From an uncultured Alphaproteobacteria bacterium (lineage in GTDB: Bacteria > Pseudomonadota > Alphaproteobacteria > CAAHEQ01 > UBA3637): a stretch of 64,000 nt of DNA. The notes below the pieces were generated by a model that had not been told where the DNA came from, did not search any database, and saw nothing but the letters and a program-made list of their open reading frames with translations. Location: NCBI GenBank assembly GCA_934202735.1, contig CAKPYH010000001.1, forward strand, positions 75,614 through 139,613, given 5' to 3'. Position numbers and translations under genes: made by a program. Below are positions 59,706 to 60,638 of this stretch, one piece after another. The stretch's first letter is position 1; every line of letters starts with the position of its first letter.

Positions 59706-60638
59706 TTATCTTTCCGCCTGTTGTGGGTGTGTAAACAAGGGTTCAGGATCCACGCGAACACCGTACCAGGTGAGGGTAAAGTGTAAATGCGGGCCTGTGG
59801 AACGGCCGGTTGTGCCGACTGACCCGATAACTTCTTTTGCACTAACGATTTGATTTTCTTTAACTTTTATATCACTTAAATGAGAGTAAGATGAAAAAAC
59901 ACCAAAGCCGTGATCTATTAAAACGGTTTGACCGCTGAAAAACATATTGGGGTGTGTAAGTACAACACGTCCCGGGGCCGGTGCCACAACCGGTGTACCG
60001 GTAGGGGCGGCGTAATCGGTCCCGCTATGTCCTTGTTTTTTCACACCATTTAGAATTCTGCGAGAGCCAAAAAAACTGGAAATACGTTTGAATTTCGGGA
60101 CCGGGCGTGTCCAGGTGGCGGGAAAAGCCGGGTAAGTGGAGGTGGCGCGGGCTTGCCGCAAAGCCAAAGCTTCCGCCGTAATTCGGGCCTGATCGGCCGG
60201 CGGCGGGGTTACTTTAGTCGGTGGCAGGCCGGAAATGTTTTCTTGTTTCCAAGGTGTTTCGGAAACCGGAAAAGTCATTTGTTTAGAACCGGTTGTATCC
60301 TGTAAGGTGAGAGAAAATTCACGGGAATCTTGGGGAATGCCCAGCACAAAACGACCAGTCGTATCCGGGATCACTTCAAATAATTTTGTAGTGTTTTTTC
60401 CGATATTTAAGGTGCGTTCTTGCACAAATAAATGCTCGCCGGGGGATAAGTGCCCATAAATCAACCGTCCGTCTGCCAGCGGGGTATCAAATGTCAAGGC
60501 GGCCGCCGTAAAAGAATAGAATGTAATTACAATGTAAGCACTGATGTATTTTGTAATCACTTTGTAATTACAGAGTAAAAATGTAATTACATTGTGATTA
60601 CATTTTGATGATGTATATACATTGTAATTACGTTTCAT
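59706..60638 (-). CDS. M23-family (LytM/lysostaphin-like) metallopeptidase; N-terminal about 45 aa are encoded by GTAATTAC repeat cluster 2, so start is uncertain
   Basis: C-terminal ...HSGTDYAAPTGTPVVAPAPGRVV...GQTVLIDHGFGVFSSYSHLS...GSVGTTGRSTGPHLHF... (HxxxD and HxH zinc motifs). An ATG at 60638 gives MKRNYNVYTSSKCNHNVITFLLCNYKVITKYISAYIVITFYSFTAAALTF.... No alternative ATG exists before KQMTFPV. Confidence 0.7.
   Translation of the reverse strand: MKRNYNVYTSSKCNHNVITFLLCNYKVITKYISAYIVITFYSFTAAALTFDTPLADGRLIYGHLSPGEHLFVQERTLNIGKNTTKLFEVIPDTTGRFVLGIPQDSREFSLTLQDTTGSKQMTFPVSETPWKQENISGLPPTKVTPPPADQARITAEALALRQARATSTYPAFPATWTRPVPKFKRISSFFGSRRILNGVKKQGHSGTDYAAPTGTPVVAPAPGRVVLTHPNMFFSGQTVLIDHGFGVFSSYSHLSDIKVKENQIVSAKEVIGSVGTTGRSTGPHLHFTLTWYGVRVDPEPLFTHPQQAER
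60519..60632. repeat. cluster 2 of (T)GTAATTAC(A)/TGTGATTACA/TGTAATCAC palindromic motifs, related to cluster 1
   Basis: Shared sub-blocks with cluster 1: AAAAATGTAATTAC(A/T)TTGTG...CATT...TTGTAATTACG and GTAATTACAATGT(G/A). The xseA stop codon TAA (60628-60630) lies inside the last unit. Confidence 0.85.

Follow-up and report, generated by a model that had tools for sequence, protein, structure and literature searches.

A palindromic repeat array in the leader of an M23 peptidase gene, hinting at control of a cell-wall peptidase by a toxin-antitoxin module

In an uncultured alphaproteobacterium, the gene xseA ends and the gene for an M23 peptidase begins within a cluster of palindromic repeats, which raises the question of whether these repeats are ordinary coding sequence, an inserted element, or a DNA site that is also translated. 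The cluster had been noted at positions 60519–60632 in an earlier reading of the DNA alone (hereafter, the sequence-only reading), which offered two accounts: either an element reminiscent of Rickettsia palindromic elements (RPEs) has inserted in frame and donates a signal-peptide-like N-terminus, or the peptidase starts further downstream and the cluster is an intergenic operator or terminator region. Here, we examined the cluster within the whole 64-kb stretch of DNA analyzed (“the window”) and in related loci. The features concerned are listed in Table 1.

Table 1. Positions of the two repeat clusters and of the genes and signals associated with them in the window
Feature	Position	Strand	Remarks
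mazF/PemK-type toxin gene, 101 aa	49746..50051	-	Pfam PF02452, 56 bits
mazE-like antitoxin gene, 72 aa, AbrB/SpoVT type (VKIGNSMGIRLPK)	50039..50257	-	Proposed binder of GTAATTAC units
p508, first gene of the operon	50254..51780	-	N-terminal hydrophobic segment (by inspection); weak matches to coiled-coil-type families
Sigma-70-like promoter TTGCCT-17-TATAAT of p508-mazE-mazF	51825..51853	-	10/12 matches
Cluster 1 (sister array), seven to eight units	51862..51960	.	Extends from the holA stop codon to 9 bp upstream of the -35 box
M23 (LytM-type) peptidoglycan peptidase gene, 310 aa	59706..60638	-	Pfam PF01551, 106 bits
M23 pre-protein codons 1-47	60498..60638	-	Array-encoded predicted cleavable signal peptide; alignment A1
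Cluster 2, eight 8-bp palindromic units in four pairs	60523..60631	.	Predicted MazE(-MazF) operator array within coding sequence
In-frame GTG, possible alternative start	60558..60560	-	Would give MITKYISAYIVITFYSFTAAA; not conserved in relatives
xseA stop codon TAA	60628..60630	-	Inside unit 60624-60631
xseA, exonuclease VII large subunit	60628..61959	-	Pfam PF02601, 301 bits; directly upstream of M23
M23 start codon ATG	60636..60638	-	Overlaps the xseA end by 11 nt
Shine-Dalgarno-like AGGGAG	60648..60653	-	9 nt 5' of the ATG, within the last xseA codons (QGDLF)

Anatomy, translation, and conservation of the array

The palindromic cluster proved to be real and periodic. Its units on the plus strand are GTAATTAC (60523), GTAAGCAC (60534), GTAATCAC (60553), GTAATTAC (60564), GTAATTAC (60583), GTGATTAC (60594), GTATATAC (60613), and GTAATTAC (60624), and the start-to-start steps of 11, 19, 11, 19, 11, 19, and 11 bp resolve them into four pairs with a 30-bp period. 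Within a pair, two units flank an AWT or AAA linker (11 bp from start to start), the next pair follows every 30 bp, and an inner 13-bp palindrome, ATTAC-WWW-GTAAT, recurs at the same spacing. In the 64-kb window, GTAATTAC occurred 11 times against 1.1 expected, a number reached in none of 100 shuffles; 9 of the 11 copies fell in cluster 2 or its sister array (cluster 1), and the singletons were at chance level. The sequence blocks that the sequence-only reading held to be common to the two clusters were present in both, and the xseA stop codon indeed lies within the last unit. In a covariance-model search of 49500–62200 against Rfam 15, no family matched except for a chance-level sRNA at 62002. 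A literature search for GTAATTAC returned mostly primers and nothing relevant, and one for NYKVIT returned nothing.

The best NCBIfam match of the M23 protein was a Pgp3-like peptidoglycan metallopeptidase model (145 bits, below its cut-off of 300). xseA and M23 are probably co-transcribed, as no promoter-like (sigma-70) site, and no terminator-like site either, was found at their junction (60300–60800). The minus-strand ATG named by the sequence-only reading as the M23 start was confirmed, alongside the in-frame GTG further downstream, and translation from this ATG begins MKRNYNVYTSSKCNHNVITFLLCNYKVITKYISAYIVITF. The overlap of ATG and TAA was also present in L001, L003, L008, L009, and L097; a Shine-Dalgarno sequence (AAGGAG or AGGGAG) occupied the same place in L001, L003, and L008, a weaker AAAGGA was found in L009, and L097 had TTGGAT, with no clear match. 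Furthermore, the reading frame through the array was open in all 10 related loci with an M23 core match, and in half of these (L001, L003, L125, L166, and L196) no other in-frame ATG, GTG, or TTG preceded the AxA site. In the leader, NY(K/N)V(I/Y)T repeats make up a long n-region, which is followed by an h-region (ISAYIVITFYSF) and by TAAA↓LTF as the cleavage motif; the hydrophobic core (YIVITF) of this predicted signal peptide is encoded by the last unit and precedes a conserved AxA↓LTF. Inspection of alignment A1 showed K30, ISAYIVITFYSF, and TAAA↓LTF, an unusually long n-region (about 30–60 aa), and, conserved across the orthologues, small residues at −3 and −1 and the motif AxA↓L(T/S)F. 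These results support the view that the array is translated from the ATG at 60638. Meanwhile, the repeat-encoded residues occurred only where the DNA repeat occurs, which favors an element over ordinary coding sequence. The repeat-less M23 orthologues carried an unrelated lipoprotein signal peptide; they were not located beside xseA, and GTAATTAC was absent from 20 kb at their loci.

The codons of the leader differ from those of the rest of the gene. Valine is encoded by GTA in 79% of leader codons versus 15% in the gene body, threonine by ACA in 72% versus 36%, and tyrosine by TAC in 57% versus 25%. The coding arrays keep a 30-bp period, with 54 of their 67 steps being 11, 19, or 30, whereas the non-coding arrays have steps of 11, 20, and 31 and a 31-bp period. 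These codon and spacing patterns show that selection acts on the DNA of the array despite its translation, and the spacing of the coding arrays also speaks for that translation. The array would be read in two stop-free unit frames, GTA-ATT-ACn giving VIT and nGT-AAT-TAC giving xNY; these two frames, the 30-bp rather than 31-bp period, and the biased codons make the dual-use constraint visible in the sequence.

An array was found at the position of cluster 2 in L001, L003, L008, L009, L097, L106, L125, L166, L196, L201, L221, L236, and L253, and relatives with arrays in both places spanned 45–88% M23 identity and 30–48% GC. The matches listed by the DNA-pattern scans of genome contigs (with a three-unit pattern) and metagenomes are a sample and not a count; the three-unit pattern gave at least 120 matches in genome contigs, mostly to unrelated tandem repeats. 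Among the clade members listed by DNA pattern, every array was in one or other of these two contexts, with none in a third. Unit number differed between relatives through local gain and loss and not through presence or absence of a whole element; within the species, the unit-encoded residues were mostly invariant, and most substitutions fell between units. Phase variation by repeat number was considered and rejected, as leader length was unchanged in 16 within-species variants. In all cases, the two arrays flanked the gidB-parA-parB-parS region, at 3.8–4.9 kb from parS in the window.

The sister array and the recurrence of the motif at mazE genes

At the end of cluster 1 furthest from the promoter, the steps are 11, 8, and 11, a spacing also found in a Treponema mazEF promoter (L072). 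TTGACA-type promoters occupy the position of the p508-mazE-mazF promoter in L001 and L120. In seven relatives (L003, L120, L129, L182, L247, L249, and L251), p508 lay directly 5' of mazEF, and the arrangement of an array followed by the promoter of p508-mazE-mazF recurred. At L260 (P0125), a short ORF ends at the mazE start, as would be expected of the usual context; at L258 and L259 (P0126), the usual p508 3' end lies upstream of mazE, L259 being apparently truncated or chimeric.

The window MazF matched E. coli MazF with a BLASTP E-value of 1e−6, and pairwise BLASTP of the window MazE with E. coli MazE gave 3e−6, with the GNSxGxR loop conserved. By itself, the window MazE is a weak match to known families (PF04014 at 15.4 bits, below the Pfam cut-off; PDB 7d2n at E = 0.015), and its AlphaFold model is weak (pLDDT of 55.7 from a 7-sequence alignment); its homologue at L143 scored 36 bits in the Pfam search.

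The motif recurred at mazE genes outside the clade. Among about 230 unrelated loci found by DNA pattern alone, which are a sample, eight (L063, L072, L143, L155, L157, L205, L223, and L239) encoded homologues of the window MazE with 26–41% identity; each of these mazE genes begins 12–33 bp after GTAATTAC units, arranged as pairs or triples with an 11-bp step, and is followed by a MazF homologue. In L205, L143, and L155, the units overlap the −10 box. When MazE relatives were instead collected from viral contigs by protein search alone, one of four (L254) had the same pair at the −10 box, and another (L257) had GTTATAAC 8-mers in place of GTAATTAC. The motif-associated MazE proteins have a common loop, (V/I)(K/Q)IGNSxG(I/V)R(L/I)(P/S)K. 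The E. coli mazEF operator, GTATCTAC-aat-GTAGATTG-ATATATAC-t-GTATCTAC with a spacing of 11, 8, and 9, follows the same grammar of 8-mers and linkers. Meanwhile, in 12 loci an unrelated gene of 56 aa was also preceded by GTAATTAC units, indicating that the motif is not exclusive to MazE. Well-kept arrays of the cluster 1 type with no adjoining p508-mazEF were present in L001 (holA, array, promoter, rubrerythrin), L187 (holA, array, convergent gene), and L253 (miaA, array, convergent parB), so that the binder is either encoded elsewhere in these genomes or is not MazE. Cluster 1 lies upstream of the −35 box, whereas the units of classical mazEF promoters lie over the −10 box, and cluster 2 itself is not at a mazEF promoter.

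Proposed function and alternative explanations

We propose that both clusters are binding sites of MazE, probably as a MazE-MazF chain, with cluster 2 set in the translated M23 leader and cluster 1 autoregulatory, and we give this reading a probability of about 0.55. The AbrB-type MazE encoded 10 kb away in p508-mazE-mazF would recognize the eight sites of cluster 2, and the arrays would probably be occupied by chains of MazE and MazF. Cluster 1, just upstream of the promoter of p508-mazE-mazF, is predicted to be the autoregulatory operator of this operon. Initiation of M23 translation at 60638 (ATG) would be coupled to termination at the xseA stop codon, and the last unit would supply the hydrophobic core of a signal peptide removed at AxA↓LTF. 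A multi-site operator could survive in translated codons because it is located in this disposable peptide, which is cut off, so that the protein cost of carrying the sites would be small. MazE-MazF bound to the array would block RNA polymerase arriving from xseA and lower M23 expression, an effect that would be lifted once the labile antitoxin is lost. As a promoter is undetectable at cluster 2, this roadblock effect is a conjecture; we infer both the binding of MazE and the direction and size of the regulatory effect.

The two accounts given by the sequence-only reading each stood in part. A downstream start of M23, with the array as an untranslated intergenic region, is very unlikely: although initiation at the GTG at 60560 would yield a signal peptide of ordinary appearance and L097 has TTG and GTG codons ahead of a separate hydrophobic segment, relatives do not share this GTG, five of them lack any in-frame start past the first ATG, and the frames of all 10 loci are open even though one frame of each unit reads TAA. 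Furthermore, only the cluster 2-type array has a period of 30 bp and not 31 bp, and the ATG overlapping the xseA stop codon is conserved and usually preceded by a Shine-Dalgarno sequence. No terminator-like site was found, but the operator of this account has DNA-level support from the codon bias, the sister array beside a promoter, and the link to MazE. The other account is supported in placing the array within a translated, signal-peptide-like N-terminus; its comparison with mobile RPEs fits poorly with the two syntenic positions, the only ones among the matches listed. A functionless RPE-like repeat inserted in frame in M23 by chance is accordingly scarcely credible to us, even though cluster 2 has a palindromic structure, keeps the reading frame, and exceeds the genome in AT content and the repeat is absent from more distant M23 orthologues. 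Only two arrays occur in 64 kb, with other single copies at chance level; the clade members listed by DNA pattern all have them in the same two contexts, with their position kept across deep divergence; and unit count changes locally, with no length variation within the species.

It is also possible, though unlikely, that the arrays bind another clade-specific protein (nucleoid-associated, cell-cycle, or chromosome-organizing) and that mazEF is a bystander. The arrays that persist without an adjacent p508-mazEF, the constant flanking of gidB-parA-parB-parS, the GTAATTAC units upstream of the unrelated 56-aa gene, and a 30–31-bp period that resembles protein-wrapping arrays are all consistent with such a binder. 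MazE itself is favored by the same units in the promoters of eight independent non-alphaproteobacterial mazE homologues and by the matching grammar of the E. coli operator; separate canonical parS sites are present, and no Lrp/AsnC gene was found in the window or L001, nor any candidate binder in the loci examined. We consider it less probable still that the array acts mainly at the RNA level, where it would provide MazF-type cleavage sites, a hairpin, or both in the xseA-M23 transcript and thereby control mRNA stability or translational coupling. MazF-family toxins cleave ACA or UACAU-type sites; the 114 nt of array RNA contain nine ACA (eight of them UACA), where the rest of the gene would predict about 2.9, the folding energy of this RNA is −40.3 kcal/mol (z = −6.35), and a MazF gene is linked. 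However, a hairpin follows automatically from symmetrically spaced palindromic units, cluster 1 folds weakly (z = −2.8), and the exact 8-mer is conserved without compensatory variation. Moreover, cluster 1 keeps the same units even though, lying upstream of its promoter, it is outside the p508 mRNA. Action at the RNA level can also be compatible with DNA binding by MazE.

Other kinds of site were considered and set aside. For sites of the Lrp/AsnC type, to which the inner 13-bp palindrome at 30-bp spacing had pointed, tblastn with E. coli Lrp and AsnC detected no gene in the window or L001, and the MazE evidence superseded the idea. The parS centromere (TGTTNCACGTGAAACA) has canonical sites at 56683 and 56759, to which the arrays are dissimilar. 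DnaA boxes matched only at chance level, TTAA, considered for CtrA, was absent from the units by inspection, and the GC-skew profile had no inflection that would mark a replication origin. GT..AC boxes of the GntR/HutC type were a further candidate.

Comparison with known systems and implications

RPEs are mobile units of 100–150 bp, with many dispersed copies and presence/absence polymorphism, which lie in frame in ORFs. Cluster 2 resembles them as a palindromic, AT-rich repeat that is read in frame and adds peptide sequence, but differs in its two fixed syntenic positions, 8-bp unit, and 30-bp period. The extended signal peptide region (ESPR) of autotransporters is a long N-terminal extension before a normal n-h-c signal peptide and is conserved as a protein motif; the M23 leader likewise has a long extension before its predicted n-h-c signal peptide, whereas its conservation is in the DNA, synonymous positions included. 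CcpA cre sites and the PurR site at purB are coding-region operators that act as transcription roadblocks, being single sites of dedicated metabolic regulators. Here too, a predicted repressor site within translated sequence would stop elongating RNA polymerase, with the difference that a putative toxin-antitoxin complex would occupy a multi-site array.

The promoter-operator of E. coli mazEF is an “alternating palindrome” with three MazE dimer sites, “c-a-b”; MazE binds the three adjacent sites, MazF enhances the binding, and the two proteins form alternating chains (PMC4333400). Such enhanced binding and chain formation suit arrays. As in E. coli, an AbrB/SpoVT-type antitoxin is paired with a PemK/MazF toxin, and adjacent promoter-side sites consist of 8-bp GTAnnTAC-like units with an AAT linker (11-bp step). 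Unlike E. coli mazEF, there are eight units instead of three sites, the core motif differs (GTAATTAC), the operon begins with an additional gene (p508), the coding sequence of an unrelated gene contains a second array at a distance of 8.6 kb, and the module is syntenic across the whole clade and not mobile. The antitoxin MqsA regulates other genes through palindromes in the rpoS, cspD, and csgD promoters (PMC4894380). The present locus is similar in that the predicted operator motif of an antitoxin is found again away from the antitoxin's own operon and would bring another gene under its control. MqsA belongs to a different antitoxin family, and its sites are single palindromes in promoters and not an eight-unit array in translated codons.

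When these M23 proteins are annotated, their unusual NYKVIT-repeat N-termini should be retained and not trimmed. We also raise, as a tentative idea that we hold to be doubtful, that mazEF has become a fixed core-genome module and switches a peptidoglycan hydrolase at two levels, combining a DNA block by MazE-MazF chains with MazF cleavage sites in the mRNA; if so, loss of the antitoxin or activation of the toxin would directly reset the output of a cell-wall hydrolase. Other genes might then likewise carry concealed antitoxin operators in their coding sequence, as a general and overlooked wiring of chromosomal toxin-antitoxin systems into physiology, and “orphan” operators, such as those in Bacteroidetes-like contigs, may belong to the same wiring. 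The role of chromosomal toxin-antitoxin systems, notably that of mazEF in cell death and lysis, has long been disputed, and this locus offers a conserved, easily testable candidate link between MazE and a hydrolase.

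Two palindromic arrays and their positions

The window contains 11 copies of the 8-bp palindrome GTAATTAC, where 1.1 would be expected; no shuffle reached 11, and 9 of the 11 copies sit within two clusters. Cluster 2, at the junction of xseA and the M23 peptidase gene, consists of eight units if those with one or two changes are included, and their spacing (11,19,11,19,11,19,11) forms four pairs with a 30-bp period, each pair laid out as unit-AAT/AAA/ATT-unit. The repeat cluster that the sequence-only reading had placed at the end of xseA was thus borne out, including the TAA in its last unit and the units common to cluster 1. 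The latter array has one end at the holA stop codon and the other 9 bp short of a TTGCCT-17-TATAAT promoter.

Coordinates of the features (positions in the window unless a locus from another genome, metagenome, or viral contig is named)
Feature	Position or locus	Strand	Remark
xseA	60628..61959	minus	
M23 peptidase gene	59706..60638	minus	counted from ATG
Cluster 2 units	starts 60523, 60534, 60553, 60564, 60583, 60594, 60613, 60624		eight
xseA stop TAA	60630-60628	minus	inside last unit of cluster 2
M23 ATG	60638-60636	minus	5 nt ahead of last cluster 2 unit
AGGGAG (SD)	60653-60648	minus	precedes M23 ATG
Cluster 1	51862-51960		same units as cluster 2
p508-mazE-mazF	49746-51780		
parS (TGTTTCACGTGAAACA)	56683-56698, 56759-56774		two perfect canonical sites; one in gidB 5' end, one just upstream of gidB
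parS-like copy	55219-55234		two mismatches; inside parB
Low-GC island	about 33500-41300		
Autotransporter gene	62047-63762		
Cluster-1-type arrays	L001 14639-14850; L187 1047-1130; L253 9024-9142		
Units before 56-aa gene	L226 4778-4830; L237, L232, L211, L139, L167, L200, L240, L131, L207, L176, L151		GTAATTGC-ggt-GTAATTAC-N23-GTAATTAC
mazE homologue loci	L063, L072, L143, L155, L157, L205, L223, L239		eight; each then a MazF homologue

In M23 orthologues with identities as low as about 45%, the called N-termini are packed with NYKVIT, NYNVIT, and YYIVIT repeats, the number of which varies. In the relatives whose DNA was found through the protein (L001, L003, L125, and L253) or through the bare DNA pattern in genomes (L008, L009, L097, L106, and L120) and metagenomes (L129, L166, L182, L187, L196, L201, L221, and L236), the arrays occupied just two contexts, either the junction of xseA with M23 or the gap that follows holA or miaA; the GC content of the array-bearing genomes was 30 to 48%. 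No third context appeared among the matches listed from DNA-pattern scans of genome and metagenome collections, which are a sample, not a count. The array is not a Rickettsia palindromic element (RPE), and the proposal of an RPE-like mobile repeat was rejected, because the arrays in the relatives sampled are confined to two fixed positions. M23 orthologues whose signal peptide is of the lipoprotein type (L124 and L252) are not adjacent to xseA, and GTAATTAC is absent from 20 kb of these loci.

The gene downstream of the cluster-1-type array differs among close relatives (p508, rubrerythrin, or a convergent gene), and the lptE-holA-miaA order is inverted in some of them; therefore, this array may mark a recurrent rearrangement breakpoint. 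The parABS region is flanked by both GTAATTAC arrays at 3.8–4.9 kb. The low-GC island (0.32–0.38 vs about 0.47–0.50 around it) encodes a 780-aa ankyrin-repeat protein, two arylsulfotransferases, an OprB-type porin, and a DUF4352 protein, and looks like horizontally acquired host-interaction cargo. The gene immediately upstream of xseA encodes an autotransporter (beta-domain PF03797), and similar genes occur elsewhere in the corresponding region of L003, L247, L249, and L251.

Translation of cluster 2 and selection on its DNA

Each unit reads TAA in one of three frames, yet in each of the 10 loci that matched the M23 core, the M23 frame runs without a stop codon from the ATG at the end of xseA past the whole array. 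Relatives have kept both this ATG and the way it overlaps the xseA stop, with an SD (AAGGAG or AGGGAG) in most loci, and L001, L003, L125, L166, and L196 have no further in-frame ATG, GTG, or TTG ahead of the cleavage site. An in-frame GTG at 60560, which could start a normal-looking signal peptide in the window, is not conserved. The last unit codes for (Y)IVITF, the core of the hydrophobic segment; after this segment come a conserved small-x-small|L(T/S)F motif and then the conserved mature protein. The 10 open frames support in-frame translation of the repeats, one of two alternatives that the sequence-only reading had offered; that reading is partly supported, but its comparison with RPEs is not.

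In the leaders (the array-encoded N-terminal codons) of ten loci, Val is written as GTA in 79% of cases, Thr as ACA in 72%, and Tyr as TAC in 57%, compared with 15%, 36%, and 25% in the body of the same genes. Among 16 within-species variants (88–98% identity), no copy-number change of the units was found; the unit-encoded residues were mostly invariant, and substitutions fell mostly between units. Because of this codon bias, the within-species invariance, and the recurrence of the same units in cluster 1, which is non-coding, the leader peptide would be a by-product of the DNA motif, tolerated since it lies within a signal peptide that is probably cleaved off. We place the probability that the array is both translated and under DNA-level selection at about 0.85.

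The p508-mazE-mazF operon and the candidate binder

Three genes, p508, a mazE-like gene, and mazF, lie downstream of the cluster 1 promoter. The p508 product has a hydrophobic N-terminal segment and weak matches to coiled-coil-type families; MamY_C, ATG17-like, and DUF948 were all weak, and none was a convincing family match. Its stop codon overlaps the start of mazE, which encodes a 72-aa AbrB/SpoVT-type antitoxin that on its own matched Pfam and PDB weakly and gave a poor structure model; the mazF product is a PemK/MazF toxin. The array is followed by p508-mazE-mazF in L003, L120, L129, L182, L247, L249, and L251. The operon stays together in relatives at 49–95% p508 identity, and such stability is unusual for a toxin-antitoxin pair.

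The decisive lead toward MazE is the set of loci from unrelated organisms retrieved by DNA pattern alone, in which MazE homologues (26–41% identity) begin 12–33 bp past GTAATTAC units that form pairs or triples at an 11-bp step. In L205, L143, and L155, units overlap the −10 box, whose TACAAT or TACATT is a unit end plus linker, and the spacing in L072 (11,8,11) is identical to that of the promoter-distal part of cluster 1. The loop (V/I)(K/Q)IGNSxG(I/V)R(L/I)(P/S)K is common to the motif-associated MazE proteins. The mazEF operator in the E. coli K-12 genome is GTATCTAC-aat-GTAGATTG-ATATATAC-t-GTATCTAC, with a spacing of 11,8,9. E. coli MazE binds adjacent sites as three dimers, and MazF raises the affinity; the two proteins form alternating chains (PMC4333400). 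Of four MazE relatives sampled protein-first from viral contigs, one had the same unit pair at −10 and another had GTTATAAC 8-mers instead; the 8-bp GTnnnnAC unit thus looks general and GTAATTAC subfamily-specific. Judged from these sequence patterns, MazE is reasonably likely to be the binder of the arrays. Well-preserved cluster-1-type arrays without an adjacent p508-mazEF occur in three lineages, preceding a rubrerythrin promoter in L001 and lying between convergent genes in L187 and L253; in these, either mazE is elsewhere in the genome or another protein is the binder. Furthermore, GTAATTAC units immediately precede an unrelated, conserved 56-aa gene (MSIEKTKTDQYQIRLSHEFRAQLEEQARKDG...) in 12 metagenome loci, and thus this operator word may serve a second protein family as well; the product of the 56-aa gene looks like a small ribbon-helix-helix regulator, with no match in Pfam.

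"Orphan" triples (GTAATTACaatGTAATTACattGTAATTAC) without an adjacent mazE were found in L159, L162, L184, L186, L189, L190, L238, L244, L146, L027, and L188, in the last two of these 60 bp ahead of a gene whose product has a TAT-type signal sequence, a position that both share. The same triple is present at the mazEF promoters of L063, L157, L223, and L239, and the two contigs with a taxonomic label, L027 and L063, are Bacteroidales. Antitoxin operators of this predicted kind may be widespread beyond toxin-antitoxin operons. GTAATTAC arrays, often GTAATTACcGTAATTAt, also lie 2–20 bp upstream of a 135–215-aa gene family (start MIKLLLR... or MMKIIDFF...) in archaeal MAGs (L006, L031, L054, L074, L012, L020, L102, L119, and L007; two Candidatus Iainarchaeum, most "uncultured archaeon") and one Bacilli MAG (L015).

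Proposed effect on M23 and the two constraints

Cluster 1 would serve as the autoregulatory operator of p508-mazEF, and cluster 2 as a second array for the same MazE-MazF complex, between xseA and the M23 gene body, where it would act as a roadblock and so uncouple M23 from transcription of xseA until MazE is lost. Because no promoter or terminator was detectable at cluster 2, a roadblock on M23 transcription is the simplest effect, and we propose it tentatively. The array may also contribute at the RNA level, for instance through cleavage by MazF or altered mRNA stability, because the array RNA is ACA-rich (9 in 114 nt vs about 2.9 expected) and folds strongly (z = −6.35); however, the hairpin is an automatic result of symmetrically spaced palindromes, and the fold of cluster 1 is weak.

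Among described systems, the E. coli mazEF operator and the MqsA antitoxin regulon (PMC4894380) come nearest. New beyond these are a predicted eight-unit antitoxin operator embedded in the translated codons for the signal peptide of a peptidoglycan hydrolase, the clade-wide conservation of this operator-in-leader layout, and a mazEF module that is syntenic, not mobile. The spacing in coding arrays is 11, 19, or 30 in 54 of 67 cases, and that in non-coding arrays is 11, 20, or 31, and also 8, 17, 29, or 33. Across the window clusters and related loci, the period is 11+20 = 31 bp in non-coding arrays, whereas it is 11+19 = 30 bp in coding arrays, and the preferred 31-bp period (three helical turns) is cut to 30 bp only where the reading frame must hold. 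The difference between 30 and 31 bp is a visible signature of a reading-frame constraint laid over a helical-repeat constraint.
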